From contig CAZEYP010000003.1 in NCBI GenBank assembly GCA_964515925.1, positions 21,628-85,627 on the forward strand: a stretch of DNA of 64,000 nt, written 5' to 3'. Each line of letters opens with the position of its first letter. The first letter of the stretch is position 1. Below are positions 12,559 through 31,474 of the stretch, piece after piece. The stretch comes from an uncultured Nitrospirota bacterium. Lineage in GTDB: Bacteria; Nitrospirota; Thermodesulfovibrionia; Thermodesulfovibrionales; JdFR-85. The position numbers and the translations under genes were made by a program. Under the pieces are notes generated by a model. It ran no database searches. It saw only the letters and a list, made by a program, of their open reading frames with translations, and was not told the DNA's origin.

Positions 12559-13128
12559 ATGGAAAGAAGGGTCCTATATTTTGAGAAGCCTGGGAAGGTA
12601 AACACCGGGGCCTGTTTAAAGGTTGTGATAGAGAGGCTTTCTGAGGGAGATATTAATGATGTGGTTGTTGCAACAACCGGAGGGGATACAGGATTGCTTT
12701 TTGCTGAGGCCCTGAAAGACAGAGATATTAACCTTGTAGCTGTGACCCATTCTTATGGGTTCAGAGAACCTAATACAATAGAGATTTCTTCCGAAACTGT
12801 TGAAAGGCTTAAGTCCCTCGGTGCAAAGGTTTACACAGGCACCATGATAACCCATTCACTGGAGACCGCCTTTACAATGAAGTCAGGTGGACTTTATCCC
12901 ACCATTATAGTTGCTCAGAGCCTCAGGAGATTCGGAGAGGGCCCCAAGGTCTGCTGTGAGATAGTAATGATGGCTGCTGATGCTGGCCTTATACAGGAGG
13001 GTAAGGAGGTAATAGCAGTGGCAGGCACAGGAAGGGGTGCTGATACAGTGATGGTGATCAGGGCAGCCACCTCAAAAAGATTTTTAGACCTTAAGGTATG
13101 TGAAATCTTAGCAAAACCAAGGGGATAA
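12559..13128 (+). CDS. stand-alone pyruvate-kinase alpha/beta (C-terminal) domain-like protein
   Basis: About 190 aa (VVVATTGGDTG...IAVAGTGRGADT) resembling the PK_C fold family. GGGAG lies 5 nt upstream of ATG 12559. Function unknown. Confidence 0.55.
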   Translation: MERRVLYFEKPGKVNTGACLKVVIERLSEGDINDVVVATTGGDTGLLFAEALKDRDINLVAVTHSYGFREPNTIEISSETVERLKSLGAKVYTGTMITHSLETAFTMKSGGLYPTIIVAQSLRRFGEGPKVCCEIVMMAADAGLIQEGKEVIAVAGTGRGADTVMVIRAATSKRFLDLKVCEILAKPRG

Positions 13129-13131
13129 ATT

Positions 13132-13503
13132 ATGAGGGCAAAGGAATGGATTGAGCAGGCAAAAAGAACGATCTCATCAGCAGAGCATTCAACATCAGGG
13201 GGGTTTTACGAGGATTCCTGTTTTCTTGCACACCATGGTGCCCTGCTTGCAGCAATAGCGCTTGCCACAAGGAAGGGATTGGTTGAGACAGGAATGTCTG
13301 TGTATTACATCCTGTCAAGGACCGGTGCAGAAAAGGAGCTTCTTCACAGGGCAAGGGTGCTTGATACCCTTTATCTACCATCAAGATTCCCATACTGTTT
13401 CACTAAAGGAACACCAATGGATTACTTTGACGAGGAAACCGCCAGGGAGGCAATAGGTCATGCAAAGGCCATCGTGGAACGAGTTGAAGAAGAACTGGGC
13501 TGA
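13132..13503 (+). CDS. HEPN domain protein
   Basis: A 4-helix pattern: AKEWIEQAKRTISSAE...FLAHHGALLAAIALA...LDTLYLPSRFP...EEAREAIGHAKAIVERV, typical of the PF05168-type HEPN domain. Confidence 0.65.
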   Translation: MRAKEWIEQAKRTISSAEHSTSGGFYEDSCFLAHHGALLAAIALATRKGLVETGMSVYYILSRTGAEKELLHRARVLDTLYLPSRFPYCFTKGTPMDYFDEETAREAIGHAKAIVERVEEELG

Positions 13504-13846
13504 TAAGTATTTTTTTGAGCCCCTTTCAGAGTTGATAAACAGGTTACATGAAGACAGAGGGGCACAGATAGAGCTCATTGCCCTTTTCAGCCCTGAAGCA
13601 GATAGACCGTTAACACCTGCAAGACCACCAATATATCTACTAATTCTATATAACTGCGAGATTGATTTCCTTAAAGAAAACCTCTTTCTCAGAGAGCATG
13701 ACCCTTCTGGTATATTTGAATTTTTTACTTACAGTGCTGATTCATTCAGGGAGATGCTGGGCCAGGGAAATCCGATTGCACTGATGGCAAAAAAAAGGGG
13801 GTTAATTATTTTTGAAAAAGACGGTATCGCTGATACCCTTCAGTGA
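13460..13846 (+). CDS. degenerate minimal nucleotidyltransferase-like partner of the HEPN protein (hypothetical)
   Basis: IELIALFSPEADRPLTPARPPIYLLILY aligns by eye to the hG[GS]...DhDh NTase core, but the catalytic G/D residues are replaced. The true start is uncertain (overlaps HEPN by 44 nt). Confidence 0.35.
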   Translation: MQRPSWNELKKNWADKYFFEPLSELINRLHEDRGAQIELIALFSPEADRPLTPARPPIYLLILYNCEIDFLKENLFLREHDPSGIFEFFTYSADSFREMLGQGNPIALMAKKRGLIIFEKDGIADTLQ

Positions 13847-14529
13847 AACTCTGTAGTAAGAATGACAGAATTTCCCAGTTCAAGCACTGCTTTAGCAGGA
13901 CAATGAAGTGTATCAACCTTTTCGTCAAGTATCATTGAAAGTGCCTTTCTTTTCTTTTCCCCTGACAGAATAAGGAACACCTCACGTGCAAGTCTGAAGG
14001 TTTTAATAGTGATAGTTATACGTGCTGCTAAAGGCGCCACAGGAACAGGCACAGCAAGTCTGCTGTGGTCTTTCAGTGCCCCGGCTCCCGGAAATAAAGA
14101 AGCTATATGACCATCCTGTCCGATTCCGGCTACAATAAGGTCAAGTCCATTAGGTAGTAACTCTTTTCTCAGTAATTCATCATATTTTCTGGCTGCCTTT
14201 TCTGCTCCCAGCTCACCTTCTATCGGAAATACCTGTGAGCTATTTATTCTGGCCGGTGCAAGAAGTTTTTCTTTTAGCAGCCTGTAATTGCTGAGTTCTG
14301 AGTCAGGAGGCACTGCTCGTTCATCTACAAAAAAGATATGCATATAATCCCAATCATTGGCTGCCCAGACCATCCTTTGCCACAAACCAAGAGGAGATGT
14401 TCCACCAGAGAAGCCAATTCTGAATGGCTTCTTAAACCTCGCCCGTGCATTGTATCTTTTTCTGAGTTGTTCGTATAACCAGTCAGAAAGTGACTGGTAG
14501 TCTTTGAAGCCTTTTATTTTACCCACCAC
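13840..14529 (-). CDS. pgl: 6-phosphogluconolactonase
   Basis: GFSGGTSP and GIGQDGHIASLFPG motifs. Overlaps zwf by 16 nt. Confidence 0.8.
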   Translation of the reverse strand: MVGKIKGFKDYQSLSDWLYEQLRKRYNARARFKKPFRIGFSGGTSPLGLWQRMVWAANDWDYMHIFFVDERAVPPDSELSNYRLLKEKLLAPARINSSQVFPIEGELGAEKAARKYDELLRKELLPNGLDLIVAGIGQDGHIASLFPGAGALKDHSRLAVPVPVAPLAARITITIKTFRLAREVFLILSGEKKRKALSMILDEKVDTLHCPAKAVLELGNSVILTTEFH

Positions 14530-16019
14530 TGATGACCGTCTTTCTTTATAAACTCTTCAGCTTCCCAGGGTCCCCATGTGCCTGCCTTATAGTCGTGTAT
14601 ATGAAAAAGCACCAGACGCTTACTTTTTTCTAAAAACTCCAGTATTGGCGTAAAGAACTCCCAGGCAATCTCCACTCCTTCCTGCCCAACAAATAGAAGA
14701 TGGTCACCCCTCAGGCAATCCATCAAGACCCGTTCGTAGGCATCGGGTAGCTCTGTTCCAAAATCCTTGTAAGAGAAATTCATCACCACATCTCTGAAAC
14801 AGAGCTTGGTGCCAGGGATCTTGGTCTGAAAGGTAAGCTCTATAGCCTCATCAGGTTGAATCCTGAAGACAAGCACATTGGGCTTGATATCGCCTGATAC
14901 GATGTCTTTGAATATGGAGTGTGGAACTGTCTTGAAATGAACCGATACCTCGGTTATTCTCTTTTTAAGCCTCTTTCCTGAACGCAGATAAAAGGGCACA
15001 CCCTGCCATCGCCAGTTGTCAATAAATACCTTCATGGCAGCAAAAGTGGGGGTTTTGGAGTCCTTTCTGACACCTGGTTCATCACGGTACCCGGGGATCA
15101 CCTCGCCGTCTATTTTGTTTCTTATGTACTGTCCGAAAACTGCATATTCGGGGACCTCTTTTTTTGTCATATGTCTTAATGAGCGGAAGACCTTTACCTT
15201 TTCATCTCTTATCCTTTTTGGTTCAAAAAGGGCTGGAGGCTCCATTGCCACGAAGCTCAGTAGCTGAATTATATGGTTTTGAAACATGTCACGAATAATA
15301 CCTGCCCTGTCGTAATAACCAGCCCTCTCTCTAACACCAATGGATTCAGAGGCTGTTATCTGGATATGTTCAATATGGTTTCGGTTCCAGATAGGTTCGA
15401 ATATGGAGTTTGCAAACCTGAATAGCAGTATGTCCTGGACGGTTTCCTTGCCAAGATAGTGATCAATACGAAAAACCTGCTCCTCGGTAAGATACTTAAG
15501 CAGAGTTTTATTGAGTGACCTGGCGGAATCAATGTCCCACCCAAAGGGCTTTTCAATGATTATCCTTACATCCGGGTTTTTAATAAGAGAATTTTCTCCA
15601 AGAGACATCACAATACTTTCTGTTAGAACTGGTGGAACAGCAAGATAGAACAGTCTCCGCTTCCCTGTTTTAACTTTTTTCTCTATCTTCTGAAGTGTGC
15701 TTTTAAATCTCTTATAGCTTTCAGGTTTGTTGTAATCAACAGTGCTATAATATACATGCCTGAGAAAATTGGTCTTTTCCTCCGTCTCTTTAATTGTATC
15801 AGATAGGTGTTTTCTGAAATCATCTTCTTTAAAGGGAGTGCGAGCCGCACCAAGGATAAAAAATTGCTCTGGTAACATGCCTCTGGTGTAGAGACTGAAA
15901 ATAGCAGGAATTAGTTTCTTCTTTGTAAGGTCTCCAGAGGCACCAAAGATTATAAGACCAAAGGGCTCACAAACCGGTTCGAGCAGGCATGATTTTGAAT
16001 TCTTTTTTTTTGACTTCAT
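14514..16019 (-). CDS. zwf: glucose-6-phosphate 1-dehydrogenase
   Basis: IIFGASGDLTKKKL NADP site and RIDHYLGKE active-site motif; 501 aa. Confidence 0.92.
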   Translation of the reverse strand: MKSKKKNSKSCLLEPVCEPFGLIIFGASGDLTKKKLIPAIFSLYTRGMLPEQFFILGAARTPFKEDDFRKHLSDTIKETEEKTNFLRHVYYSTVDYNKPESYKRFKSTLQKIEKKVKTGKRRLFYLAVPPVLTESIVMSLGENSLIKNPDVRIIIEKPFGWDIDSARSLNKTLLKYLTEEQVFRIDHYLGKETVQDILLFRFANSIFEPIWNRNHIEHIQITASESIGVRERAGYYDRAGIIRDMFQNHIIQLLSFVAMEPPALFEPKRIRDEKVKVFRSLRHMTKKEVPEYAVFGQYIRNKIDGEVIPGYRDEPGVRKDSKTPTFAAMKVFIDNWRWQGVPFYLRSGKRLKKRITEVSVHFKTVPHSIFKDIVSGDIKPNVLVFRIQPDEAIELTFQTKIPGTKLCFRDVVMNFSYKDFGTELPDAYERVLMDCLRGDHLLFVGQEGVEIAWEFFTPILEFLEKSKRLVLFHIHDYKAGTWGPWEAEEFIKKDGHQWWVK

Positions 16020-16061
16020 AGATACTTTTAATTTTACTACCTTTCTAACTTTTTTTCTATG

Positions 16062-18191
16062 TTAATGTGAAAGATTTAAAGAATCAATGACATTAAGCAG
16101 GGTTCCTTTTTTTATAGGTTTTTCAAGATATCTGTCAGCCTTTATAGTAGACAGTGCATCAACAAAGCCTGTCATTGCTATGGTTCTTATCTCTTTCTTT
16201 ATGCTTTTAAATCGTTTTATTAGTTCTCCACCATCCATCTGAGGCATTAAAATATCGGTTATTACAAGGTCAATGTTGTCGTTGTTTTTTCTAAAATATT
16301 CGAGGCTGATAAAGGGATTCTGAAACACCTGCACTTCAAAACCATGCTCAACCAATACATCCTTTATAAACTGTAAAACCGGGAGTTCATCATCAACGAC
16401 CATTACCTTTCCAAGGGATGCCTTTTTATCAGAGAGTTCCAAATGCTTTATAACTGGTGTTTTATTGGCTGCCGGTAGATAAATGTAAAAAGATGTGCCC
16501 TTTCCAGGAGAGCTGTTAATGGTAATATATCCTTCGTGGTCTTTGATTATTCCATACACCATTGCAAGGCCAAGTCCGGTACCTTTTCCTGCCTCTTTTG
16601 TAGTAAAAAAGGGTTCAAAGATTCTGTCTTTTATCTCTGCTGGAATACCAGTGCCTGTGTCCGATATTTCAAGTTTTACATATCTTCCAGGCTTAACATC
16701 TGCAAATATCTTTAGTTTGTTACGGTCTATGGTTTCAGTAGATGTTTTTATATGAATTATTCCGCCCTCAGGCATTGCATCTTTTGCGTTTATCAGCAAG
16801 TTTATAATAACCTGTTCTAATTGCATGATGTCACCGTTTATTATTGGAAGGCCTGGGTCCAGTTCTTTTTTTATCTCTATATCCTTTGGGATAAGCTTTG
16901 CTGTCATTGTTAAAGAGTCCTCTATAATACTGTTCAGATTGAGTGGTACCACTTCTTTGCCTTTCTTTCTGGCAAAACTAAGAAGCTTTGAGACAATGTT
17001 TGATGCCTTTCTTGCAGAAGATTCGATTACTTTAATTTTTGAGATCACATCCTGTGGAAGATGTTGATTCTCTACAAGCAAACTTGCATAACCAAGAATA
17101 GAGGTCAGAATGTTGTTAAAGTCATGCGCAATTCCACCAGCAAGAGTCCCAACAGATTCCATTTTTTGAGCATGCAGTAGTTGATTTTGTAATCGCTTCT
17201 TTTCTGTTATATCGCGCAGAAAGGACTCTATAAATATATCATCATCAAATTTAATTGCACAGGAGCTTACTTCAAGTATTATTCTTTTTCCATCCTTTCG
17301 TATATGTTGTGTTTCAAAAAGGAGTGATTCACCATTTAGAAGCCTTTGAATTCTTTCTTTGCAAAGAGGTATATTAGTTTCAGATTCTAAGATGGTGATA
17401 TTCATACCTTTAAGCTCTTCCTTGGTGTAACCATGAAGTTCACAGGCCTTATTGTTTGCATCAATAATATTTCCCTCTTTGTCAAAAATAAGTATTCCGT
17501 CGTTTGCGTGTTCATGAAGGGCCTTAAGCATGGCCTGTGACTTGGCGAGTTCCTTAGTTCGTTCTGCAACGAGATCTTCGAGCTGTTCGGAGTATTGCTT
17601 TAATCGTTCTTGCTCCAGAACTAAATCGTATTGGAGTGAGAAATTTCTTATTAGAAGTGATTGATTTAGATGCCGCCATGTTATGCCAATGAAAAAAGTT
17701 GCTATTAAGTAAAGGTTATTATTAATAAAAATATTTATATTTGTGATGTTGTCTAAAAAGAGAATCGGTAAAAGGTATATTGTATAAATAAGAAGTGCAC
17801 CTAATATAGTGAGTTTGTAAGAGATGGGCAGGAATCCGATTATAAATAAGAAAGTCAATATCATTCCTGCATAATAAGGTGATTGGTGCCCACCAGTATA
17901 AATTATCATTAATTCAACCATAGAGGCAGCAATAACTGTTGCAGCTATAGTAATTCCAATCTGTATCTTTTTGTTTCTCTTTTTCCTGTTTAATAAGAAA
18001 AGGATAACTAATAAGATAATACTAATTATTCTGATAGATAAAAAATTAATAAAAATTGTTTTTGCAACAAAATAATCAAGTATTATCAGAAATATAATTA
18101 AGAAAATTCCTGCTCCTAAAACTACAGAGCCCCAGTACTGGAAAAGATTTAGTATTTTTTCATTAATAAAATCCTGTTTTGATTGCTCCAT
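16062..18191 (-). CDS. hybrid sensor histidine kinase (multi-TM N-domain, PAS, HisKA, HATPase_c, receiver)
   Basis: About 6 TM helices in the first 190 aa, a PAS domain (ANDGILIFDKEGNIIDAN), an H-box GGIAHDFNNILTSI, a G-box GTGLGLAMV, and a C-terminal REC domain (VVDDE...ITDILMPQMDG). Confidence 0.85.
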   Translation of the reverse strand: MEQSKQDFINEKILNLFQYWGSVVLGAGIFLIIFLIILDYFVAKTIFINFLSIRIISIILLVILFLLNRKKRNKKIQIGITIAATVIAASMVELMIIYTGGHQSPYYAGMILTFLFIIGFLPISYKLTILGALLIYTIYLLPILFLDNITNINIFINNNLYLIATFFIGITWRHLNQSLLIRNFSLQYDLVLEQERLKQYSEQLEDLVAERTKELAKSQAMLKALHEHANDGILIFDKEGNIIDANNKACELHGYTKEELKGMNITILESETNIPLCKERIQRLLNGESLLFETQHIRKDGKRIILEVSSCAIKFDDDIFIESFLRDITEKKRLQNQLLHAQKMESVGTLAGGIAHDFNNILTSILGYASLLVENQHLPQDVISKIKVIESSARKASNIVSKLLSFARKKGKEVVPLNLNSIIEDSLTMTAKLIPKDIEIKKELDPGLPIINGDIMQLEQVIINLLINAKDAMPEGGIIHIKTSTETIDRNKLKIFADVKPGRYVKLEISDTGTGIPAEIKDRIFEPFFTTKEAGKGTGLGLAMVYGIIKDHEGYITINSSPGKGTSFYIYLPAANKTPVIKHLELSDKKASLGKVMVVDDELPVLQFIKDVLVEHGFEVQVFQNPFISLEYFRKNNDNIDLVITDILMPQMDGGELIKRFKSIKKEIRTIAMTGFVDALSTIKADRYLEKPIKKGTLLNVIDSLNLSH

Positions 18192-18204
18192 TAGATAAAA
18201 CTCC

Positions 18205-19617
18205 TTAAAGAATTTTCTCTCTTCTCATTATAAATCTTGAGAGATCATAACTAATATAAGTAACCCCTGGAATTCCCAAACCCTGAGTAGTCCAATGTCC
18301 TGTTAGATAAAGGTTTTTAATGAAATTAGGTTTTCTAAAGTCATTGTCGGCTAATTGATTTGTTAAACTGGCCCATCCATAAGCAGCACCTTCAGAATTA
18401 TATGTATACCTGTAAAGAGTATAAGGTGTAGCTGCCTCCTTATAAATTAAATTTTGAGTTAAACTTGGAAAATAATCAATAATTAATTCTATAAAATTAT
18501 TCATATAAGTTTTTTTAAATCTATACCAGAAATACTTTGATACAAAGGGAGCTATAACAAAAGCAATAACCGTTTTACGGTCCTGACCTATATGTAACAT
18601 GAAACTTTTTTTCTCTAATATTTTCTTTTTAAAAGAGAGATTGTAAACTTCTTCAAGATTTGCATCCGATAGTATCCATAGATTAGCACCAGCTGGGATA
18701 TCTTCAATAGGTTTTTTATATCCTAAGTAGAGTATGAACATCGAGAGGGTCTGTTTCATTTGATTAATCTTTTTTAAAAAAGTAGATGGTAAATATTCCC
18801 TCCCAATTAGATTAAAAAAAGTATGTTTTGCATCTATATTTGAGATAATATAATTTGCACGGAAAGACATAGGTTTTTTTTTCAATACAACACCAACAGC
18901 TCGGTTATTTTCAACTATAATTTTTCTTACAGATTCAGATAGGATGATATCTCCGTTGTTTTCTCTAAATATATCCAGGAGTGTATCAGGCAAGCTTTGC
19001 ATGCATCCTTCAGGATAATATCCACCATCTATTAAGAATTCCTTATATATCTTTGAACCAATAAAAGCTGACATTAATGAAGGAGGCAAGCCACCATTTC
19101 CAAGAAGAGGGTATGCGATAATAGCTTTTAATTCTTTGTTCTTAAAAAAATTATTTAAAAGACGCTCAAAGGTCCAGGTCCTAACATTAGCAAAGAAATG
19201 AGGTTCAGGGTTTATAATGGTTTTGAAAAATCTTTTAATATTATCTGCTTCATGAGGAAAGGCTTCTTGAAAATCACTAATAGTTCTCTGAATATTTGAC
19301 CAGTATGAAATCCTGTATTTATTGTAATATACTATATCAGAAGGGTCTATTTTTAATAATTTTAACCTGTTTGTTACCCCCAAATCTTTAAAAATATTAC
19401 CTACATTACCAAGTTTGAGACCACCAATAGAATGAGCTGCAGCATCAAAGGTAAAGCCCTTGCGTTTAAAGGATGTGCAGTATCCTCCTGGCTTGTTATG
19501 CTGTTCAACTATCAATACCCTAAGTCCCGCCTTAGCCAGATAACAACCACACACAAGACCGCCGATACCTGCTCCTATTATTATAACATCGTAGGTTTGC
19601 CTTGAAGAGCTCATCAT
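18205..19617 (-). CDS. FAD-dependent oxidoreductase of the phytoene desaturase (CrtI)/amine-oxidase family
   Basis: N-terminal DVIIIGAGIGGLVCGCYLAKAGLRVLIVEQ dinucleotide fold; 470 aa; CrtI-like length and C-terminal YLTGHWT. Its start abuts the ACP stop. Confidence 0.75.
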   Translation of the reverse strand: MMSSSRQTYDVIIIGAGIGGLVCGCYLAKAGLRVLIVEQHNKPGGYCTSFKRKGFTFDAAAHSIGGLKLGNVGNIFKDLGVTNRLKLLKIDPSDIVYYNKYRISYWSNIQRTISDFQEAFPHEADNIKRFFKTIINPEPHFFANVRTWTFERLLNNFFKNKELKAIIAYPLLGNGGLPPSLMSAFIGSKIYKEFLIDGGYYPEGCMQSLPDTLLDIFRENNGDIILSESVRKIIVENNRAVGVVLKKKPMSFRANYIISNIDAKHTFFNLIGREYLPSTFLKKINQMKQTLSMFILYLGYKKPIEDIPAGANLWILSDANLEEVYNLSFKKKILEKKSFMLHIGQDRKTVIAFVIAPFVSKYFWYRFKKTYMNNFIELIIDYFPSLTQNLIYKEAATPYTLYRYTYNSEGAAYGWASLTNQLADNDFRKPNFIKNLYLTGHWTTQGLGIPGVTYISYDLSRFIMRREKIL

Positions 19618-19872
19618 TTATTTCTTCTCCGCAAGCAGCTTGTTCACCATATCTACAGCGTGTCCTACAGTAGTAATGTTAGGTATCTCATCATCCCTTA
19701 CTGATACCTTGAATTTTTTTTCAATTGCAACTGCAATCTCAATTGCCTTGATTGAATCCACTTCAAGGTCTTCAAAGAAGTTTTTGTCTGCTGTAATTTC
19801 CTCTGGTTCAAAGCCTGTTACATCTGACACAATTGATATAATTTCCTGCTCTACATTGTTGCCCATGGCCAC
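19618..19872 (-). CDS. acyl carrier protein (dedicated, non-housekeeping type)
   Basis: 84 aa with the phosphopantetheine site LEVDSIKAIEI. Confidence 0.85.
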   Translation of the reverse strand: MAMGNNVEQEIISIVSDVTGFEPEEITADKNFFEDLEVDSIKAIEIAVAIEKKFKVSVRDDEIPNITTVGHAVDMVNKLLAEKK

Positions 19873-19876
19873 CTCC

Positions 19877-21088
19877 TTAAATTGTATATTTTTTTAGAAT
19901 CAAAGATGCGTTGTTACCACCAAAGGCATAGGAGTTGTTCATTGCAATATTTACATCCTGTTTTCTTGCAACATTGGGGACGCAGTCTATGTCACATTCA
20001 GGGTCAGGTGTTTCAAAATTTATTGTTGGTGGAATTTTACCGGTCTTAATTACAAGCGCACAGGCAGCAGCCTCTATTGCAGATGCAGCGCCCATTGTAT
20101 GACCAAGCATGGATTTTATTGAGCTCACTGGTATTTCTTTATACCTGCTTCCAAATACCTCTTTAATGGCTGCAACCTCTGCTCTGTCGTTGGCTACTGT
20201 GCCGGTTCCATGAGCACTGATATAATCAACATCATCTGGCGAGATTCCAGACTCCTTCAATGCCTTTTTCATGCATGACACTATCCCTTCCACTGAAGGG
20301 CTTGTCATATGTTTTGCATCGCAGCTCAGGCCGTACCCAAGTATTTCAGCATATATCTTAGCTTCTCTTTCGAGGGCATGCTCCAGAGATTCAAGTATCA
20401 AGACGCATGCACCCTCGGCAACCATCATTCCTTTACGGTTTTTATCAAAGGGCTGACATTTTTCAGGTGCCACTGCTTTGAACTGGTTAAAACCTGTGAA
20501 GGCAACCTTTGAGAATGGTTCTGCACCGCCAACGATTGCTATCTCAGCCCTTCCAAGTCTTATTAAATCAGCACCGTAGCCTATTGCATAGTTGCCAGCA
20601 GCACAGGCAGTGGAAAACATTATTGAGGGGCCGGTTATATGATTGAGTCGTGAAACAACAGAGGATGTTGAATGCGTAGGAACCTTGTAGATTATCTCTT
20701 TTTCGAAGTGTTTTACATTATGAAGAACAATCTGTTCGTTAATAAATTCTGATGCCTGAACAGAACCCATTGTGGTTCCAATACATACTGTAGTTTTTGT
20801 TAGATCTTCCTTTGATAATGCAATCTCAGAGTCTTTTATGGCAAGTCGGGCTGCCCCAATAGCAAGCAGAGAAGCCCTGCTGGAGTTATCTATAAACTCT
20901 GAAAGCCCCATCTCCTGTGGATTGAAGTTTTTAACCTGTCCGCCAAGATGGGTAAAGTGCTCTGAGGTGTCAAAGGCTGTTACCTTACTTATGCCTGAAA
21001 GACCATTTAATAGGTTTTTCCAGAATTCCTCTTTCCCTATACCAATTGATGTAACGAGACCTATGCCTGTTATTACAACTCTTTTCAT
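19877..21088 (-). CDS. beta-ketoacyl-ACP synthase (FabF-like KS, catalytically complete)
   Basis: The Cys-His-His triad is present: STACAAG, AHGTGT, GHTMGAAS. C-terminal NSYAFGGNNASL. Confidence 0.9.
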   Translation of the reverse strand: MKRVVITGIGLVTSIGIGKEEFWKNLLNGLSGISKVTAFDTSEHFTHLGGQVKNFNPQEMGLSEFIDNSSRASLLAIGAARLAIKDSEIALSKEDLTKTTVCIGTTMGSVQASEFINEQIVLHNVKHFEKEIIYKVPTHSTSSVVSRLNHITGPSIMFSTACAAGNYAIGYGADLIRLGRAEIAIVGGAEPFSKVAFTGFNQFKAVAPEKCQPFDKNRKGMMVAEGACVLILESLEHALEREAKIYAEILGYGLSCDAKHMTSPSVEGIVSCMKKALKESGISPDDVDYISAHGTGTVANDRAEVAAIKEVFGSRYKEIPVSSIKSMLGHTMGAASAIEAAACALVIKTGKIPPTINFETPDPECDIDCVPNVARKQDVNIAMNNSYAFGGNNASLILKKYTI

Positions 21089-21090
21089 AA

Positions 21091-22299
21091 TCAGATTTTC
21101 CCTATGATCAGGGCTGCGTTGTTTCCAAAGGGGTCTGAACCAATAACTAAAATATTGTTTAATTCCGGAGATTCTCTGATTGTTGTTATCAGGTTAATAT
21201 CACACTCAGGGTCTATTTCGATGTGATTAATTGTTGGTGGAATATAGTTTGTAGTCAGTGCGTTGACGGCTGAAGATAACAGAAATGCTCCCGAGGCTGA
21301 GCAGGGTTCGCCAAGTGTAGATTTAATTGCTGTGACTGGCGTGGTTTTTCCAAAGATCTCCTTGATGGCCTGAGCCTCCTGTTTATCTAGCTCCTTTGTG
21401 GAGTTTGCAGATGAGAATACAATGTCTATATTTTCAGGCCTCAGGTCAGCTGATAATAGTACCTGTTTTATAGCCTGCTTAAGCCCTGCTGATTGGTTGC
21501 TATCAGGTGAAAAGGTGTTGGCATAAGAGATTATGCGGGCAAGTATGGTGGCCTCTCTTTTTAAGGCATTTTCTTCTTTTTCAATTACAATAAGGCTGGC
21601 ACCTTCTGAAAGTACCAATCCATTCCTGTTTTTATCGAAAGGTGCCGAGCGAATGATTGTCCCATCAGTTCCAGAAAGCAGGCCACATTGATATAGCCCT
21701 GTAAATAACTCCTCGCACAACTCCTCCACACCTGCTACCAGAACTGTATCTGCCCTGTTAAGCCTGATGAAATCACAGGCATATATAAATGCATCAAAGG
21801 ATGCACAAATTCCTGTTGATACAGTAGTATTAAACCCTTTAATTTTAAACTTAATGGCAGCCTGGCTCGCTGGTGAGTTGATGACTGTATTGGGGAAAAA
21901 GGATGGATTTACATATTTAGGTCCCTCTGTAAGCCCTTCTCTATCAAATTGAAAAATACTATGTAAGCTTCCAAATGTGGTGCCAGCAACGAGTCCTATC
22001 TTCTGTGTATTATCCTCGTTAATTACAATATTAGCGTCTTCAAGAGCGAGTTGAGTAGCGGCTATAAGCAATCTTGTGCTTCTGTCAAGCGTCCTCAGAT
22101 GACGCTTTTCTATAAAGTCAAGCGGGTTGAAATCAGCTATCTCACAGGCCCTTTTCACATTGAAATCATTCGTATTGAATAATGTAATATCACGGATACA
22201 GTTTCTCCCTTCGCAAAGTCCCTTCCAGAACTCTTCATTTCCAATACCTAATGGAGAGACTATCCCTATGCCTGTGATAACCAGTTCGGTATTTTTCAT
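21091..22299 (-). CDS. KS-like partner protein lacking both catalytic His (chain-length-factor-like)
   Basis: Thiolase fold, 402 aa. The Cys position is retained (STGICAS), but AHGTGT is replaced by SSANST and GH by GEPCSAS. Confidence 0.75.
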   Translation of the reverse strand: MKNTELVITGIGIVSPLGIGNEEFWKGLCEGRNCIRDITLFNTNDFNVKRACEIADFNPLDFIEKRHLRTLDRSTRLLIAATQLALEDANIVINEDNTQKIGLVAGTTFGSLHSIFQFDREGLTEGPKYVNPSFFPNTVINSPASQAAIKFKIKGFNTTVSTGICASFDAFIYACDFIRLNRADTVLVAGVEELCEELFTGLYQCGLLSGTDGTIIRSAPFDKNRNGLVLSEGASLIVIEKEENALKREATILARIISYANTFSPDSNQSAGLKQAIKQVLLSADLRPENIDIVFSSANSTKELDKQEAQAIKEIFGKTTPVTAIKSTLGEPCSASGAFLLSSAVNALTTNYIPPTINHIEIDPECDINLITTIRESPELNNILVIGSDPFGNNAALIIGKI

Positions 22300-22308
22300 A
22301 AAAAAGAT

Positions 22309-23055
22309 TTAAATACTTAAACCACCATCAATTGTTAATACCTGTCCAGTGATGTAGGAGGCGTGAGAGCTTGCGAGGTAGACACATCCCTGTGCTACTT
22401 CATCGGTCGTCCCTAACCGTTTAAATGGAATCAATTCCAGTATCTTTTTTCTATAATTCTCATTCAGGCTGTTAACCATATCAGTTTCAATAAAGCCAGG
22501 TGCAATTGCATTTACCCTGACATTATAAGGTGCTACTTCACGAGCCAGTGCCCTGGTTAAACCTATTACACCAGACTTGGCCGAAGCATAGCTGACCTGT
22601 CCTGGCAGGGGTGATATACCGCTTACCGAGGATATGTTAATAATACAGCCCGATTTTTGTTTAAGAAAGGTGACAATGCAAGCCTTTGTAAAATTAAACA
22701 CACCGGTGAGGTCAACATCTATTACATCCTGCCAGTCCTCATGGGTCATCATGATTATGGACCTGTCTTTGTTAATGCCAGCGTTGTTGACCAGTATATG
22801 AAGCCCACCATATTCTTTTTTGACTTTCTCAACAAAATCTTTTACGCCTTCATAATCCCTCACATCCACTTGTTCATACATTACTCTTGAGCCCATTGCT
22901 TCAAGTTCCGAAGCTAATGCTTTGGCTTGTGTTGAGCTACTTGAGAAGGTGTAAGCACACAGAGCTCCTTCTTTTGCAAAGGCGTATACTATAGCCCTTC
23001 CTATACCCCTTGAACCACCAGTGATTATTGCTACTTTATCTTTTAATAGTCCCAC
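22309..23055 (-). CDS. 3-oxoacyl-ACP reductase (SDR, FabG-like)
   Basis: TGGSRGIGRAI, NNAG and S...YASAKSG motifs. GTG start. Confidence 0.9.
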   Translation of the reverse strand: MGLLKDKVAIITGGSRGIGRAIVYAFAKEGALCAYTFSSSSTQAKALASELEAMGSRVMYEQVDVRDYEGVKDFVEKVKKEYGGLHILVNNAGINKDRSIIMMTHEDWQDVIDVDLTGVFNFTKACIVTFLKQKSGCIINISSVSGISPLPGQVSYASAKSGVIGLTRALAREVAPYNVRVNAIAPGFIETDMVNSLNENYRKKILELIPFKRLGTTDEVAQGCVYLASSHASYITGQVLTIDGGLSI

Positions 23056-23058
23056 TTT

Positions 23059-24465
23059 TTATAATTTTGTAATGGTATAGAAGATTATAGCACCTGTTTC
23101 GTCTCTTTTATTGCTTACCGCCTCGTTGGGAATCTCTGACTCTTTCAGGATAGAAAGAAAGTCGTCTTCATTCCTCTGCAGGAATCCTGTCCAGTCCATA
23201 AACCAGTGGTAGGGTTGTGGCCTGTACTGACGAACATCCTTAAAGGCTGCAATCAACACACCCTTTTTATTCAGATGCCTGTAAAGGTTTCTCAGTATTT
23301 TTATAAGCATATCGGTTTGCAGGTAATCAAAGAGCCCGACACTGTAGATTATATCCTGTTTTGGGAAGTCTCTTTCAACTATTTCATAATCGAAAAGCCT
23401 TAACGCATTGTAGTAACGAAATTCTAAATTAGATATAACTTCAGGGTCATTGCTTAATCTGTTGTAAGCAAAGGAGAGGGCATCCTCATCGGTATCGAGA
23501 CAGGTTATCCTTGCCCCTGAGATTTTTATCTGGGGGATAAGGTCTAAGATTTCCCTGCAGGAACCGCAAGCAATATTCAGGACTTTTGGTTCTTTCCTCT
23601 GCTCAAGCTCTATTGTCAATAACTCTGTTAGTATCCTTAACCTGTTCCTTACTCCCTGTGCAAGGGTAGAGTTCAGGGCGTAATAATCCATGTAGTAACC
23701 AATCCCGGTGGACATAGGTGTGTTTCTGTATATGCCTTCCAGTGTCTTGAAGTCACCCTGGTATCCCTGCGGCCATGTCCTTGTCCTGTTGAAGGCATAG
23801 CTTTTGATAAATATGGGATTTGTCTTTTCGTGAAACCTTTTTCTGCATTCTTCTATTAGTGTTTTGTTGGAGATGCCTGTTTCAAAAAGTTCTGCTTTGT
23901 CTATAAATTCATTGAAGGTGTTTTTGAGTTTTAAGTAAATATCGTGGGGCGAAAATGTTTTTTTATCTATCAAATCCTCTATATATTTGCATTGTCTTAT
24001 AAACTCATCAGTAGCATTATCAATATATTTCAACCACTGTTTTGCTATCTCCTGTTCAAGCTCGTGGAATTCTTTTTCATATACATTAACGGGTAACCCA
24101 CAACTACTACATGTATTTGTATGATCCTTTCCATTGTTAGAACCGCAAAAGGGGCATTGTCCAGTTCTATCAATGTGTTCTTTGATATAATTCCAGAGAA
24201 TCTGCCTTGATGACTGGTCAATATTAAGAAATCTAACCGCTATACCACTTCTGTCTTTTCTAACAATTCTAACATCGCTCTGAAACTCTCCTGATTCAGG
24301 TATCACCGCCTTCAGTCTTATGACTTCCTTCTCAGAGAAAGGCAAAGAAGTCTTAAGAAGGGCACCCTTTAGACCTATGTTTTTTGTAGCTGTCTCTTTC
24401 AAGGTGTTGTTTGTGAGTATTGTTACTGGTATGGAGGCATTGCACCTCACATCTAATCTCCCCAT
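23059..24465 (-). CDS. PilZ domain - zinc ribbon - class I SAM-dependent methyltransferase fusion protein
   Basis: RLDVR (RxxxR) and NIGLKGALL PilZ-like motifs, a CPFCGS...CSSCG ribbon, and methyltransferase motif I VLNIACGSCREILDL. The start at 24465 (MGRLDV) has GGGAGGTG 5 nt upstream; the track start 24492 lies inside the promoter. Confidence 0.7.
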   Translation of the reverse strand: MGRLDVRCNASIPVTILTNNTLKETATKNIGLKGALLKTSLPFSEKEVIRLKAVIPESGEFQSDVRIVRKDRSGIAVRFLNIDQSSRQILWNYIKEHIDRTGQCPFCGSNNGKDHTNTCSSCGLPVNVYEKEFHELEQEIAKQWLKYIDNATDEFIRQCKYIEDLIDKKTFSPHDIYLKLKNTFNEFIDKAELFETGISNKTLIEECRKRFHEKTNPIFIKSYAFNRTRTWPQGYQGDFKTLEGIYRNTPMSTGIGYYMDYYALNSTLAQGVRNRLRILTELLTIELEQRKEPKVLNIACGSCREILDLIPQIKISGARITCLDTDEDALSFAYNRLSNDPEVISNLEFRYYNALRLFDYEIVERDFPKQDIIYSVGLFDYLQTDMLIKILRNLYRHLNKKGVLIAAFKDVRQYRPQPYHWFMDWTGFLQRNEDDFLSILKESEIPNEAVSNKRDETGAIIFYTITKL

Positions 24466-24493
24466 TCCCACACCTCCCAAAAAAATTTCCATT

Positions 24494-24522
24494 ATTATAT
24501 AAAATTTTTAATAAACTGTCTA
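24494..24522 (-). promoter_or_regulatory. sigma70-type promoter of the PilZ-MT/KS/ACP operon (TAGACA-N17-TATAAT)
   Basis: On the minus strand, TAGACA lies at 24522-24517 and TATAAT at 24499-24494. The predicted TSS is near 24487, giving a roughly 22-nt leader that contains the SD. Confidence 0.55.
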
Positions 24523-26061: not shown

Positions 26062-27510
26062 ATGTCAGGGCAGGTTACCATAGAAAGGATTGATGAAACA
26101 AGACTCAAGGTGCCCATGGGTTATGTTCAGGGAATGAGGGTTGAAGGTATTGTGTATGTTGACAGAGTGCTCCAGCAGTATTTAGAGCCAGATGCCATCA
26201 AACAGGTTGCCAATGTTGCCACACTGCCAGGCATAGTTGGCCACTCTTTTGCAATGCCTGATGTTCACACAGGTTATGGTTTTTCTATTGGAGGGGTAGC
26301 TGCCTTTGATGTCAACGATGGGATAATTTCACCAGGTGGTGTTGGCTACGACATTAACTGAGGGGTAAGGCTCCTGAGGAGCAACCTCACACGTTCTGAG
26401 GTGCTCCCCAGGATAAGGGACCTCGTGGAGGTCCTGTTTAAAGAGATACCCTCTGGGGTTGGTTCAAAAGGAAGGCTGAAGCTCTCAAGAAAAGACCATG
26501 AGAGGCTCCTTCAAAAGGGTGCCCGCTGGGCAGTAGAGCAGGGTTATGGAACAGCAGATGACTTACAGTATATTGAATCTGGCGGTGCCATAGAAGGTGC
26601 TGAGCCTTCATTGATTAGCGAAAAGGCCTACGAACGGGGAAGAGCCCAACAGGGAACCCTTGGCTCTGGAAATCACTTTCTTGAGATACAGTATGTGGAA
26701 GAGGTTTACGACGAGAAGGCTGCCAGCATATTTGGTCTTTTCCCGGAGCAGATAACCCTGATGATTCACACTGGCTCAAGGGGATTTGGACATCAGGTAT
26801 GTACTGACTTTTTACAGATTATGGAAAGGGCTGTCAGGAAATACGGGATAAGTCTTCCTGATAGAGAACTTGCCTGCGCACCCTTTAACTGCCAGGAGGC
26901 ACAGGATTATTTTGCTGCAATGAAGGCAGCAGCGAATTACGCATGGGCAAACCGTCAGTGCATAATGCATTGGTGTAGAGTTGCCTTTATGAAGGTTTTG
27001 AGTGTTTCTGAGGGTGAACTTGGTATGCAGATTGTTTATGATGTTGCTCATAATATTGCAAAAGTGGAAGAGCATACTGTGGACGGTAAGAAAACTAAAC
27101 TTATAGTGCACCGTAAAGGTGCAACAAGGGCATTTTCTGCAGGACATCCCGAGATATCGGAAAAATACAGAGATATTGGTCAACCAGTGTTAATACCTGG
27201 AGATATGGGCAGGGCATCCTATGTTCTGGTAGGTACTGAAAAGGCAATGAAGGAGACCTTTGGCTCTACATGCCATGGTGCAGGAAGAGTGCTTTCAAGA
27301 CATCAGGCCATTAAAAGGGCAAAGGGTAGGGCTATCTGGAGAGAGATGGAGGATGCAGGTATACTGGTAAGAAGTGCTGGAAAGAAGACCCTTGCAGAGG
27401 AGATGTCGGAAGCTTACAAGGATATTTCAAATGTGGTAGATGTGGTAGAGAAGGCAGGCATATCAAAGAAGGTTGCAAGGTTGCGTCCTCTGGGGGTTGT
27501 AAAAGGTTAA
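26062..27510 (+). CDS. rtcB: RNA-splicing ligase RtcB with an in-frame TGA (codon 100) at the conserved active-site Cys: candidate selenoprotein
   Basis: Track ORFs 26062..26361 and 26401..27510 share one frame, with a single TGA at 26359-26361. The sequence GGVGYDIN[TGA]GVRLLRSNL matches the RtcB motif [10 protein letters not shown]. Downstream His motifs are intact ([23 protein letters not shown]). The RtcB call is confident; the Sec interpretation carries about 0.55. Confidence 0.8.
26378..26407 (+). promoter_or_regulatory. candidate SECIS-like hairpin downstream of the rtcB UGA
   Basis: GGAGC-A-ACCUCA [CACGUUC] UGAGGU-GCUCC forms 11 bp with one bulged A. The stem starts 17 nt after the UGA. 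The loop lacks the classical leading G, so the call is tentative. Confidence 0.4.
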
Positions 27511-28796: not shown

Positions 28797-29495
28797 TCAG
28801 TAGAATATCAGAAATAGCACAAAGGTGGTGATAGCGCCTAAGAGCCCTCCTAATATGACTTCCCATGGTGTGTGTGCCCTGACAGCAACCCTGCTCTGGG
28901 CGATAACCAGGGCAGCAATAAATGTTAGTATTGAAACGATGTAATTATGGCTGATAAATGTGGTAGAGACCCATATTGAAAAGGCAAGGGCTGCATGTCC
29001 ACTGGGTAGCCCTCCTCTTAGGGGTTTTCCCATACCGAAATGTGACTTGGTAATGATAACAAGTATAAGAACAATAACCAGTGAAACGATTGCGGTATCT
29101 TCGCCTGCATGTTTGGCTATCCTGAATCCATCCTGAAATGCCTTCATTATATAGGGCGACAGTATTATGTAACCAATAACAAGTGAGCCAAATGCAGTAA
29201 CAAGCACTGCTCCAGCAGCTATGTCTTTTGCCAGTTTTGCAATCTCATTTTTTTCAGGACTAAGAAGGTCAACAACATGCTCTATTGATGTGTTCAGGAG
29301 TTCAGCACATATCACAATTACAGCAATTGTTGATATAAGCAGGAACTCTGTTCTGCTTACACCAAGAAGAAAGCTTATTATCAGAACACCGCTTGCTGCA
29401 TAAAAGTGATACCTGAGATGTCTTTCTGTTTTTGCTGCATGAAGCACACCCTCAATTGCATAATTGGCTGATTCAACCCACTTTCTTAATGGCAT
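28797..29495 (-). CDS. fusion of prokaryotic diacylglycerol/undecaprenol kinase (DgkA) and PAP2 phosphatase domains
   Basis: The N-terminal half (ANYAIEGVLHA...ELLNTSIEHVVD...AKDIAAGAVL) is DgkA-like. The C-terminal half (PSGHAALAF...SRVAVRAHTPWEV) has the PAP2 C2/C3 motifs. ATG 29495 with an upstream GGAG is preferred over the track start 29630. Confidence 0.7.
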   Translation of the reverse strand: MPLRKWVESANYAIEGVLHAAKTERHLRYHFYAASGVLIISFLLGVSRTEFLLISTIAVIVICAELLNTSIEHVVDLLSPEKNEIAKLAKDIAAGAVLVTAFGSLVIGYIILSPYIMKAFQDGFRIAKHAGEDTAIVSLVIVLILVIITKSHFGMGKPLRGGLPSGHAALAFSIWVSTTFISHNYIVSILTFIAALVIAQSRVAVRAHTPWEVILGGLLGAITTFVLFLIFY

Positions 29496-29940
29496 CAAGG
29501 AGCTCCTTTTGTTTCGTAAACATCCTTTTTTCCTGTTTTTTTGATACCTCGTGGTCATAGCCGCAGAGATGGAGTACCCCATGTACGATGAGACGGAGTA
29601 CCTCTTCATGAAGCTCAACATCGTATTCAATGGCCTGGCGCTCGGCCTGATGTAGATTTATTACCACATCACCGATGGGCAGATCTTCTTCATAGGGTGA
29701 GTCTTTAACCGTTTTTTTTATCTCTTTTATTGAATGAAACATCGGAAAGGAGATTACATCTGTGGGACTGTCCTTTCCCCTGTATGCCCTGTTAAGCTCT
29801 TTTGATCTAAAATCGTTTACAAACAGAATGCCTATTTCTGTTTTTTCAAGTTTAAGTTTCTTTAAAACAATCTCAAGGCAGCGTTGAATGTGCTCTTTGT
29901 CTATCTTTACCTTTCTTTGGAGGTTTCTTATTATAATCAC
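29473..29940 (-). CDS. ybeY: rRNA maturation endoribonuclease YbeY
   Basis: HGVLHLCGYDH zinc motif; 155 aa. Confidence 0.9.
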   Translation of the reverse strand: MIIIRNLQRKVKIDKEHIQRCLEIVLKKLKLEKTEIGILFVNDFRSKELNRAYRGKDSPTDVISFPMFHSIKEIKKTVKDSPYEEDLPIGDVVINLHQAERQAIEYDVELHEEVLRLIVHGVLHLCGYDHEVSKKQEKRMFTKQKELLDAIKKVG

Positions 29941-31474
29941 TACCTCTTTTTATCCCCTTCCTGATAGGTGTAACCTTTTCAGTTAATACCGGTCTCTCTG
30001 ATTTTTCTGATTTTTCTTCACGGGTTTTTTCAAAGTCGAATCCTGGATAATCAACCCTTTTGTGAAGTATTCCAGTAAGTATGTAGGTGAACTTTTTCTT
30101 TATAATGGATATGTCCTTAAGGGTCAGCTCACATTCCTCAAGCTGACCATCTATGAAGATATGGTTAACGATTTTGTCCACAAGAGACTCAATGCGGGCA
30201 GGGGTTGGGTCTTTAAGCACCCTTGACGCTGCCTCTACTGCATCGGCAATCATTACAAGTGCTGCCATTCTGCTTTGAGGTTTTGGCCCCTGATAACGAT
30301 AGTCCTCTTCAGGGGGTTCACCATTACCAAGGTCCTTTGCCTTTTGATAAAAGTAGGTCATAAGACAGGTGCCATGATGCTGCTGGATTATGTCGATTAT
30401 TGGCTCCGGGAGCCTGTATTCGCGGGCAAGCTCTACACCTTCTTTGACATGAGAAGATAGTATTATACTGCTCATGTGAGGGGTGAGCAGTTCGTGTTTG
30501 CTTACTGCACCTGATTGGTTTTCTACAAAATACTCTGGCATCTTTATCTTGCCAATGTCGTGGTAATAGGCACTTACCCTTGCCATAAGCGGATTTACCC
30601 CTATGTCCTCTGCAACTGATTCCACAAGATTGCCAACAATTATACTGTGATGATAGGTGCCAGGAGCTGTAATCATGAGGTTTTTCATCAAAGGTTGATT
30701 CAGGTCTAAAAGTTCTAATAATGTAATATCAGTGGTAACTTTGAACACCATCTCTATTGCAGGTAAAAACAGAGATACGACAGAGGAGACAATGACACCA
30801 GAAGATATGGCAAAAATATAGGCAACAGGTGCGAAGTCCTGTGTAAACCTGCCTGTGTAAAGTAAAAGACCGGTAAGTGTAAATATGTTTGCAGCGCTCA
30901 CATAAAGCCCACTTTTAAGGATATCAGAGCGTTTTTTACACCTTAACACACTGAAGGCACCAACCAGACTCCCCACAAAGGCATAAATTGGATATAGTGG
31001 TTGAATGACCCACAAACCAGTAAGAAGACTGATAGTAAAGGAAAATATAATTGCCGTATGAAAATCGAATATAAGCGTTATAAGGATGGCTCCAGCAGGG
31101 ATAGGCATTCCGTAGATTATACTGTCTAAGGCACTGATGCCAAGTCCCTGAGAAAACTTGAGGAAGAAATACTGAAAGGTGCGTGCTGTGATTATGGTGA
31201 ATATGACCAGAATACCCAGAAGCAAAACCATACGGGTCTTTTTTATATAGTCAGGTTTGTAACGGATTATATCTCTGTAGAATATGAGAAAGAGAAGTGC
31301 AGAGATCAGGAAACCACCAAGTACAAACTCCACGCTCCATCCACTTTCTACAGTGATGGATGTTATGAGCCCAAAGAGTAAAACCGAGGCTATCTCTATA
31401 AGAGTGCGGCGGTTAAACCTGCTGTTGCTGCTCGATTGTTTCTGTATCTTCTTTCCGTTTTTCAGCTCTTTCAT
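29873..31474 (-). CDS. 7TM-receptor HD-GYP-like/HDIG phosphohydrolase (PgpH/YqfF family)
   Basis: Multi-TM central region, then HHSIIVGNL...YYHDIGKI (HD domain). Conserved phoH-pgpH-ybeY-dgkA gene order. Confidence 0.8.

Follow-up and report, generated by a model that had tools for sequence, protein, structure and literature searches.

A Nitrospirota operon of the anammox 'Cluster I' type with a PilZ-methyltransferase gene and a sensor kinase gene

The closest described relative of the operon considered here is Cluster I of the anammox bacteria (kuste3603-3608), which encodes an acyl carrier protein (ACP; amxACP), a dehydratase (DH; amxFabZ), the ketosynthases (KS) amxFabF2 and amxFabFmut, a phytoene-dehydrogenase homologue and a B12 radical S-adenosylmethionine (SAM) enzyme. 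This cluster has been described as confined to ladderane producers and as central to the making of ladderanes, and its ketosynthase pair as active solely as a heterodimer, with malonyl-ACP decarboxylation and a preference for C6-C8 probes (bioRxiv 10.64898/2026.05.19.726425). The operon lies in a 64-kb stretch of DNA from an uncultured Nitrospirota bacterium (assembly GCA_964515925.1, contig CAZEYP010000003.1, positions 21,628 to 85,627), referred to in full as the window. It is a minus-strand unit of seven open reading frames (ORFs) running from 24465 to 16062, and is a Nitrospirota variant of a known, functionally unsolved family. No prior description of the Nitrospirota form was found in the literature. 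An earlier inspection of the letters without database searches (the sequence-only reading) had called the gene set an orphan that it did not recognise; component by component it is homologous to kuste3603-3608, and the family is hundreds strong.

Similar clusters, 'rare but not unique', have been noted in Desulfotalea, Geobacter and Pelobacter (Rattray 2009, PMC2649909), so the link to ladderanes or polyunsaturated hydrocarbons that the sequence-only reading drew reflects a real discussion. The clusters of Desulfotalea psychrophila, Geobacter and Pelobacter share with the present one divergent FabF paralogues and amine-oxidase or 'phytoene dehydrogenase' genes. They differ, in a comparison made by description only, in their radical-SAM enzymes, acyl-CoA ligase and membrane protein, and neither a kinase nor a PilZ-methyltransferase is mentioned for them in PMC2649909. 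No ladderanes were found in D. psychrophila, the sole one of those organisms to be lipid-analysed (PMC2649909). Surveys with antiSMASH also report unexplained 'ladderane' clusters in several non-anammox phyla.

Partial likenesses extend to other systems. In the phcBSRQ quorum-sensing operon of Ralstonia, the gene after phcB is phcS, which encodes a sensor kinase (PMC11960443, PMC6989110). A membrane sensor kinase is common to both operons, and relatives of the methyltransferase (MT) described below bear the PhcB name by automatic annotation. The Ralstonia system acts on a 3-hydroxy fatty-acyl chain, but uses intermediates of the housekeeping fatty acid synthase (FAS) and has no ketosynthase, ACP or flavoenzyme of its own, while PhcR and PhcQ are absent from the window operon. 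Type II polyketide synthases (PKS) such as those for actinorhodin and ishigamide (Iga11/Iga12) also pair an active ketosynthase with an adjacent inactive homologue, the chain-length factor, are primed by malonyl-ACP decarboxylation and have their chain length set by the partner; in the present operon the partner has Ile rather than Gln at the Cys position, and the window holds no cyclases or aromatases. In the des-desK-desR genes of Bacillus, a desaturase gene precedes that of a multi-transmembrane (multi-TM) kinase of membrane fluidity, and Des is an O2-dependent di-iron membrane desaturase acting on phospholipids. The analogy is one of gene order, a putative acyl-chain dehydrogenase coming immediately before a multi-TM sensor kinase. 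The sequences are unrelated, and the enzyme here is a soluble-type flavoenzyme in an ACP-based module.

The intergenic gaps of the operon are 0-13 nt, and 0-9 nt within its first six genes. Domain assignments are from Pfam and NCBIfam searches, and the features are, from 5' to 3':

24494..24522, minus strand: sigma-70-like promoter TAGACA-N17-TATAAT, 11/12 positions, the top match in 11.5 kb
23059..24465, minus strand: PilZ - zinc-ribbon - helical linker - class I SAM methyltransferase (MT), 468 aa (Pfam, AlphaFold model)
22309..23055, minus strand: FabG-like 3-oxoacyl-ACP reductase (ketoreductase, KR), 248 aa (TIGR01830, Pfam adh_short and KR)
21091..22299, minus strand: inactive ketosynthase partner (KS'), 402 aa (ketoacyl-synt N and C domains)
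19877..21088, minus strand: active ketosynthase (KS), 403 aa, Cys-His-His (ketoacyl-synt N and C domains)
19618..19872, minus strand: dedicated ACP, 82-84 aa, DSIKAIE (Pfam PP-binding)
18205..19617, minus strand: flavin adenine dinucleotide (FAD) oxidoreductase of the Kuste3607 ('phytoene-dehydrogenase-like', PDH) family, 470 aa (Pfam Amino_oxidase)
16062..18191, minus strand: hybrid sensor histidine kinase (HK), 709 aa (Pfam), 13 nt past the FAD gene

The six tightly packed genes that the sequence-only reading had listed are all in place, but the operon is not complete with them, since the hybrid kinase (18191..16062) is a seventh. The near-consensus promoter it reported is borne out as well, with near-identical motifs 5' of the orthologous methyltransferase gene in two related loci (L001 and L044), and leaves the operon a 5' untranslated region of ~20 nt. 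The methyltransferase ORF has candidate starts at 24492 and 24465. The ATG at 24465, which had been given as the start before, is the true one, because the block comprising the ribosome-binding site and start (GGAGGTGTGGGAATGGGGAGATTAGATGTGAGGTG) is identical across three genomes. No riboswitch or other RNA was found upstream, Rfam returning only one tRNA in the window. As the sequence-only reading had also stated, fabH, fabD, fabZ, fabI and plsX are missing, and acpP likewise does not occur elsewhere in the 64 kb; genes for a dehydratase, enoyl reductase (ER), acyltransferase (AT) or thioesterase (TE) occur nowhere within it. The remainder of the window consists of ordinary housekeeping genes.

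The ketosynthase pair provides the clearest connection to Cluster I. KS retains the Cys-His-His triad and the gate Phe. Aligned with KS, its partner has lost the whole triad (catalytic Cys to Ile, first His to Ser, second His to Glu); the sequence-only reading was right about the missing His but had named only this loss, and the Cys in the 'STGICAS' motif of KS' lies one residue past the catalytic position. The best match of KS in the PDB is 9s5h_B (chain B of 9S5H/9S5I; 473 bits, 54% identity), followed by Iga11 (337 bits) and Bacillus subtilis FabF (315 bits). KS' best matches 9s5h_C (chain C of the same entries; 324 bits), with 198 bits for the best non-anammox match, and the two proteins are reciprocal best matches to the two chains of 9S5H. 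The entries are taken to be the anammox amxFabF2/amxFabFmut heterodimer of bioRxiv 10.64898/2026.05.19.726425. We infer this assignment, the PDB code being absent from the preprint text, because the entries hold two ketosynthase chains (9S5I together with ACP), because the triad positions of 9S5H chain C are Val, Asn and Glu, like those of the described amxFabFmut, and because its F134 and V138 are the Phe135 and Val139 of the paper with a one-residue offset. Read in this way, KS is 54% identical to amxFabF2 and KS' 43% identical to amxFabFmut, with corresponding identities to FabF of ~40% and ~33%.

A tree of 53 sequences (100 bootstraps), in which Iga11 was the sole PKS-type ketosynthase included, places the KS' sequences and amxFabFmut in one clade (bootstrap 100/100). 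The cluster KS sequences form a clade with amxFabF2 (77/100) that leaves out Iga11 and the FabF proteins of Bacillus and Staphylococcus. Glu occupies the second His position in 22/23 of the KS' and amxFabFmut sequences. The motif VNPxxFPNTVxNSPAS is common to both and holds the tunnel residues Phe135 and Val139, which are those mutated in amxFabFmut (bioRxiv 10.64898/2026.05.19.726425). Against the TIGR03150 fabF model KS scores 415, under the cut-off of 493.75, and it passes that of the broad PRK07314 subfamily (398.5, cut-off 387). Both ketosynthases thus lie outside ordinary FabF, and the sequence-only reading was correct that a dedicated KS, inactive KS, ACP and KR with a CrtI-family flavoenzyme do not make up a canonical fab operon. 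Its classification as type II PKS or aryl-polyene-like does not survive: the pair groups with amxFabF2 and amxFabFmut and not with Iga11, the partner has Ile and not Gln, and there are no aryl-polyene or cyclase genes. By sequence, KS is assigned as the amxFabF2 orthologue and KS' as the amxFabFmut orthologue, a chain-length-factor-like protein. By homology with the anammox pair, the two should form an obligate heterodimer in which KS' lines the acyl tunnel, and should prime by malonyl-ACP decarboxylation and favour chains of ~C6-C8.

The flavoenzyme likewise resembles its anammox counterpart. Table S6 of PMC4790861 supplied the reference sequences for this comparison. Over ~325 residues the identities are 36.7% with Kuste3607, 29.8% with Kuste3336 and 22.2% with Pantoea CrtI, and the scores are 204 bits with Kuste3607 versus 87 with CrtI. 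Its best PDB match is CrtI (4dgk), and it falls under the crtI_fam cut-off (126 bits, cut-off 238). Kuste3607 itself shows no CrtI activity (phytoene desaturation) in vivo (PMC4790861). Judged from family membership alone, the flavoenzyme probably dehydrogenates or isomerises an ACP-bound chain.

The ACP scores 57.7 against the AcpP equivalog (cut-off 70.45), and among its top PDB matches the amxACP chains (55 bits) are no better than AcpM (58 bits). KR reaches 291.7 bits against TIGR01830, under the cut-off of 297.75, in addition to its Pfam adh_short and KR matches. An amxFabZ-type dehydratase, in which a tunnel Gly is changed to Ile, was not found in the window, and the operon represents a sub-type without this gene. 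Such a gene is present in 31/39 related Nitrospirota loci, where its product best matches the amxFabZ structures (126 bits versus 104 for canonical FabZ) and has Ile (Ile69) where canonical FabZ has Gly in 39/44 sequences. In amxFabZ this Ile is a signature that bars substrates longer than ~C6 (PMC10139942). KR and the dehydratase are patchy among the relatives, and ER and AT are always absent; the pathway therefore relies on housekeeping FAS enzymes.

The methyltransferase is the first gene of the operon. It matches Pfam PilZ (E 1e-9) and Methyltransf_12/25/20, and in its AlphaFold model (pLDDT 85) a PilZ barrel at the N-terminus is followed by a four-Cys ribbon, a long helical stretch and a methyltransferase domain with a Rossmann fold. 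Its PilZ motifs are RLDVR ... NIGLKG, and relatives have the canonical RxxxR and [DN]xSxxG. HMMER searches gave a family whose representatives number 168 at E<=1e-30 and 1289 at E<=1e-10. PilZ is found in the majority of full-length members, while in a few, such as P0481 and P0486, an N-terminal response-regulator receiver (REC) domain takes its place. Since its members have either a PilZ or a receiver domain, the enzyme family seems to be generally signal-gated. At least 12 homologues, ~50-55% identical to the C-terminal 70% of the protein, have been named by JGI 'extracellular factor 3-hydroxypalmitic acid methyl ester biosynthesis protein', i.e. PhcB, by automatic annotation. The PhcB name did not appear in cluster look-ups of 20 family representatives. 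A tblastn search against plasmids gave no PhcB; its only matches were a methyltransferase from a cyanobacterium and a methyltransferase domain within a PKS. The latter was the sole notable match among 72,556 plasmids: a domain of an annotated type I PKS on an Enterobacter ludwigii plasmid (NZ_CP134637.1:46665-47549), 25% identical to the C-terminal 300 residues. The top matches of a fold search were 3ocj, the alpha-keto-acid C-methyltransferases SgvM, MrsA and MppJ, and the CurJ C-methyltransferase. O- and C-methylation are inseparable by this search because all of the top matches are just 11-16% identical. A relationship to AmxMT1, the solved anammox methyltransferase, was considered and rejected, as neither the protein nor a 27-sequence profile gave a PDB match to it, and the fold search did not connect the two either. 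Literature searches for Nitrospirota with this gene set, or for phcB in Nitrospirota, returned nothing relevant.

At the other end of the operon, the histidine kinase has a MASE8-like multi-TM N-terminus followed by PAS, HisKA, HATPase and REC domains. The MASE8-like region is recognised in 14/20 members of the kinase family, with a best E-value of 1.4e-6. An orthologous kinase gene lies directly 3' of the FAD gene in 48/49 Nitrospirota loci. No PhcR- or PhcQ-like genes accompany the operon, and the kinase bears its own REC domain.

The FAD protein and the methyltransferase are each 100% identical to proteins on public metagenome or metagenome-assembled genome (MAG) contigs (P0121, P0241). The nearest genomes are those of uncultured Nitrospirota (GCA_027071435.1 and WFMM01000124), with 72-77% protein identity and full synteny that includes rsmA, archease, rtcB, zwf and pgl. 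When genomes were scanned with a FAD-enzyme profile, relatives turned up in 364 species genomes. Of these, the best 80 are from Nitrospirota (Thermodesulfovibrionia and Nitrospiria), then Omnitrophota and Planctomycetota, and all are MAGs or single-amplified genomes. Gene co-occurrence was counted in these best 80 of 364 loci, annotated by phmmer; for Nitrospirota, the gene counts refer to the 39 loci with enough flanking sequence and the kinase adjacency to 49. KS occurs in 38/39, KS' and ACP in 37/39 each, the methyltransferase in 34/39, the FabZ-like dehydratase in 31/39 and KR in 22/39. The order MT-(KR)-KS'-(DH)-KS-ACP-FAD-HK recurs in ~40 Nitrospirota species genomes. The gene set is thus strongly conserved in relatives; this and the position of both ketosynthases outside ordinary FabF are two of the three points on which the sequence-only reading had made its proposal depend. 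Recurrence in dozens of genomes indicates more than a chance association.

The Omnitrophota and Planctomycetota variants have one further KS, the third and a very divergent one, and in many cases two FAD paralogues in tandem. The third KS has ~430-445 aa, the motifs NNACASG and PHGVG and an intact Cys-His-His triad (L050, L052, L060, L064, L076, L078, L079 and others). In these phyla the gene after that for the FAD enzyme encodes a HisKA_7TM-GAF histidine kinase, and the next one is CheY-like. A shared origin of the sensor region of the Nitrospirota kinase and HisKA_7TM of Omnitrophota is unsupported (hhalign probability 0.2%). In two Nitrospirota MAGs, L061 (8683-9987) and L057 (8632-10014), a B12-type radical-SAM gene lies between the ACP and FAD genes. 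The encoded proteins have the CxxxCxxC motif and are 30% identical to Kuste3608 over ~376 aa. In L061 each of the six anammox Cluster I genes has its counterpart, and the methyltransferase, KR and kinase are there as well; no dehydratase was detected in L057. Both lineages merit screening for ladderane-like lipids.

On these comparisons, the gene family can be regarded as the counterpart of anammox Cluster I. The two have in common a KS' gene directly 5' of that for KS, with the triad lost and a conserved Glu; the tunnel Phe and Val of KS'; a Kuste3607-type flavoenzyme; and a dedicated ACP. Relatives add an amxFabZ-type dehydratase with Ile69 and, in two cases, a Kuste3608-like radical-SAM protein. 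The window operon differs in having neither the dehydratase nor the radical-SAM gene (there is no match to the Kuste3608-type B12 radical-SAM enzyme in the window), and in the addition of KR, the PilZ-methyltransferase and the MASE8 kinase. An Ile of KS' stands in place of the Val or Thr of the anammox protein, and the host belongs to Nitrospirota, a group without known ladderanes. Four of the six Cluster I components have clear counterparts (KS, KS', the flavoenzyme and, in relatives, the dehydratase), each carrying residue-level anammox signatures, and a dedicated ACP is present as well. The core of the 'ladderane cluster' is therefore widespread beyond anammox bacteria and not specific to ladderane makers. 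Its presence outside them suggests a more general product for the core module, most probably a short acyl chain that is then tailored, and directs attention to the radical-SAM enzyme and others as the source of the ladderane-specific chemistry. Outside anammox bacteria the core is wired to second-messenger and two-component signalling; a module of this sort coupled with a PilZ-methyltransferase and a dedicated sensor kinase is previously unreported. The family also adds numerous sequences with which this unsolved pathway can be studied by comparison or in heterologous hosts.

The reading we prefer, with a probability of roughly 0.45, is that the operon encodes an auxiliary, short-chain-restricted FAS II branch of the anammox 'Cluster I' type whose product goes to membrane lipid. 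The active KS would pair with the inactive KS', which would shape the acyl tunnel like a chain-length factor. Primed via malonyl-ACP decarboxylation, the pair would work with the dedicated ACP and KR to give a short beta-keto or beta-hydroxy acyl chain of ~C6-C8. The Kuste3607-type flavoenzyme could then dehydrogenate or isomerise the ACP-bound chain, and the PilZ-methyltransferase could put on a methyl group under the control of cyclic di-GMP (c-di-GMP). The dehydratase, enoyl reductase and malonyl transferase steps would be borrowed from the housekeeping synthase. The tailored chain would most likely enter membrane-lipid synthesis, and the co-transcribed MASE8 kinase may couple the pathway to a membrane or ligand cue, much as DesK does for des.

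Several observations weigh against this proposal. No product is known, even for the anammox cluster. As the window lacks a dehydratase, more than one round of extension needs cross-talk with housekeeping enzymes, and such cross-talk between ACPs is not assured, amxFabZ being inactive towards substrates carried by canonical ACP (PMC10139942). A release enzyme (thioesterase or acyltransferase) is not encoded. The sensor domains of the Nitrospirota and Omnitrophota kinases are not detectably homologous. The PhcB-named relatives of the methyltransferase and the ever-adjacent kinase fit a signal at least as well as a bulk lipid. With regard to the fate of the product, lipid hand-over and an ester signal are about equally defensible. 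In favour of lipid hand-over are the precedent from anammox bacteria, the plsX-fabH neighbours seen in 12-14 relatives and the des-desK-like gene order; in favour of the ester signal are the PhcB-like name (automatic), the PilZ/REC inputs, the short chain and the constant kinase partner.

The most serious alternative, which we consider possible, though tentatively, is that the operon forms a self-contained system for a lipid signal, comparable to Phc, Cqs or Rpf. The module would make a short 3-hydroxy or unsaturated chain, the PhcB-like methyltransferase would convert it to a volatile methyl ester, the kinase would be the receptor, and PilZ/c-di-GMP would gate synthesis. The shared operon of phcB and phcS in Ralstonia (PMC11960443, PMC6989110) provides a precedent, and the JGI label on at least 12 homologues points the same way, although that label is an automatic annotation. 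With KR and no dehydratase in the window, 3-hydroxyacyl-ACP is a natural end point, and the signature residues indicate short chains. A SAM methyltransferase, though, requires a free carboxylate, which the absence of a thioesterase leaves without a source, and the fold search does not separate O- from C-methylation. A membrane kinase gene follows the FAD gene in three phyla, with a CheY-like gene after it in Omnitrophota, and PilZ or REC input domains occur across the methyltransferase family. The methyltransferase is absent from most Omnitrophota, Planctomycetota and anammox versions, though, and so cannot define the function of the family, and the anammox cluster is highly expressed, as for a bulk lipid (PMC4790861). 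The more ambitious form of this idea, a make-and-sense unit that represents a new class of bacterial signal, with a chain built by KS/KS', released as a methyl ester by the c-di-GMP-gated methyltransferase and detected by the MASE8 kinase, is doubtful. If true, the anammox 'ladderane' cluster would share its core with a signalling or lipid-sensing system of Nitrospirota, Omnitrophota and Planctomycetota.

The remaining alternatives place the module in other pathways. A highly reducing type II PKS-like line, leading to a polyene or a cyclised chain as in aryl polyenes, cinnamoyl lipids or ladderanes, with the flavoenzyme as isomerase or dehydrogenase on the polyene, would account for an active and a dead KS with KR, a dehydratase in relatives and no enoyl reductase. 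It could also draw on Iga11 as second-best structural relative of KS, the radical-SAM genes of L057 and L061 (30% identical to Kuste3608) and the antiSMASH 'ladderane' calls in non-anammox phyla. It is nevertheless unlikely: KS groups with amxFabF2 and not with Iga11, the tunnel residues of KS' and the dehydratase Ile of the relatives argue for chains of C8 or less, the window has neither dehydratase nor radical-SAM gene, and ladderanes are known from anammox bacteria only. Hallmark genes of aryl-polyene synthesis, cyclases and transporters are missing from the window, Pfam searches of its whole length giving no ApeI/ApeP dehydratases, aryl-starter enzyme or LolA/MMPL-type export. A rearranged housekeeping fabG-fabF-acpP set is very improbable. 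The cluster stands beside yceD-plsX-fabH in 12-14 relatives, with no fabD-fabG-acpP-fabF there, it is part of core-genome synteny, and KS exceeds the PRK07314 cut-off (398.5 versus 387). KS, ACP and KR all fall below the FabF, AcpP and FabG equivalog cut-offs, however, and the closest relatives of the two ketosynthases are the specialised pair of an anammox host that has a canonical FabF besides. KR is absent from 17/39 loci and the dehydratase from 8/39, so that other FAS genes must exist elsewhere; the best 80 loci include no cultured isolate, and a dead KS, flavoenzyme, methyltransferase and kinase belong to no known housekeeping set. Equally hard to sustain is a cofactor-precursor line, either a BioC-like route to pimeloyl-ACP for biotin or a supply of octanoyl-ACP for lipoate. 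The human mitochondrial ketosynthase serves lipoate synthesis. A tunnel residue of KS' has been likened to the chain-limiting one of that enzyme (bioRxiv 10.64898/2026.05.19.726425). The ~C6-C8 restriction and a candidate carboxyl methyltransferase beside a small FAS module would suit such a line. Against it, bioF, bioH, lipA and lipB are not nearby in the window, and the flavoenzyme, sensor kinase and PilZ control would have no role. The methyltransferase is also unlike BioC in size and architecture.

Some features of the surroundings are also of note. Downstream of the kinase gene, after a gap of 42 nt, lies a candidate tail of the same transcript:

13823..16019, minus strand: zwf and pgl, then a terminator-like hairpin, in close relatives only

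The terminator-like site spans 13837..13823, the zwf-pgl order after the kinase is also found in L001, and zwf and pgl are possibly carried on the transcript of the FAS operon. The G+C content is 0.33-0.35 across the kinase and FAD genes (16001..20000), compared with ~0.43 for the window and 0.40-0.43 for the KS, KS' and KR genes. About 4-7 kb upstream of the operon there is a gene for a diacylglycerol-kinase/PAP2 fusion (28797..29630, minus strand) and beside it one for a 7TM-HD membrane receptor (29873..31474, minus strand), a pair that is syntenic in L001. Both are lipid- or membrane-related, and are neighbours of the operon by location only.

In 12-14 of the related loci the cluster is convergent to yceD-plsX-fabH (e.g. 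L003:17475-20165, L036:13580-14560, L065:14603-15631). At these loci fabD-fabG-acpP-fabF is absent after fabH, which is unusual for a fab operon, and the cluster may have replaced or displaced that segment. In L003 a PhdYeFM/PIN toxin-antitoxin pair (12981-13603) is inserted between the KS and ACP genes.

A separate observation concerns the RNA-ligase gene rtcB (26062..27510, plus strand), which is split by a single in-frame TGA at 26359-26361. The TGA falls on the exact position of the conserved metal-binding Cys of 'DINCGVR' (…GYDIN-TGA-GVRLL…), and two hairpins occur just 3' of it (z = -2.1). The split is also present in L001, and the archease gene lies directly upstream of rtcB. The literature found on selenocysteine in RtcB describes an engineered Sec98 RtcB only; the gene in the window is a candidate for a natural selenocysteine RtcB.

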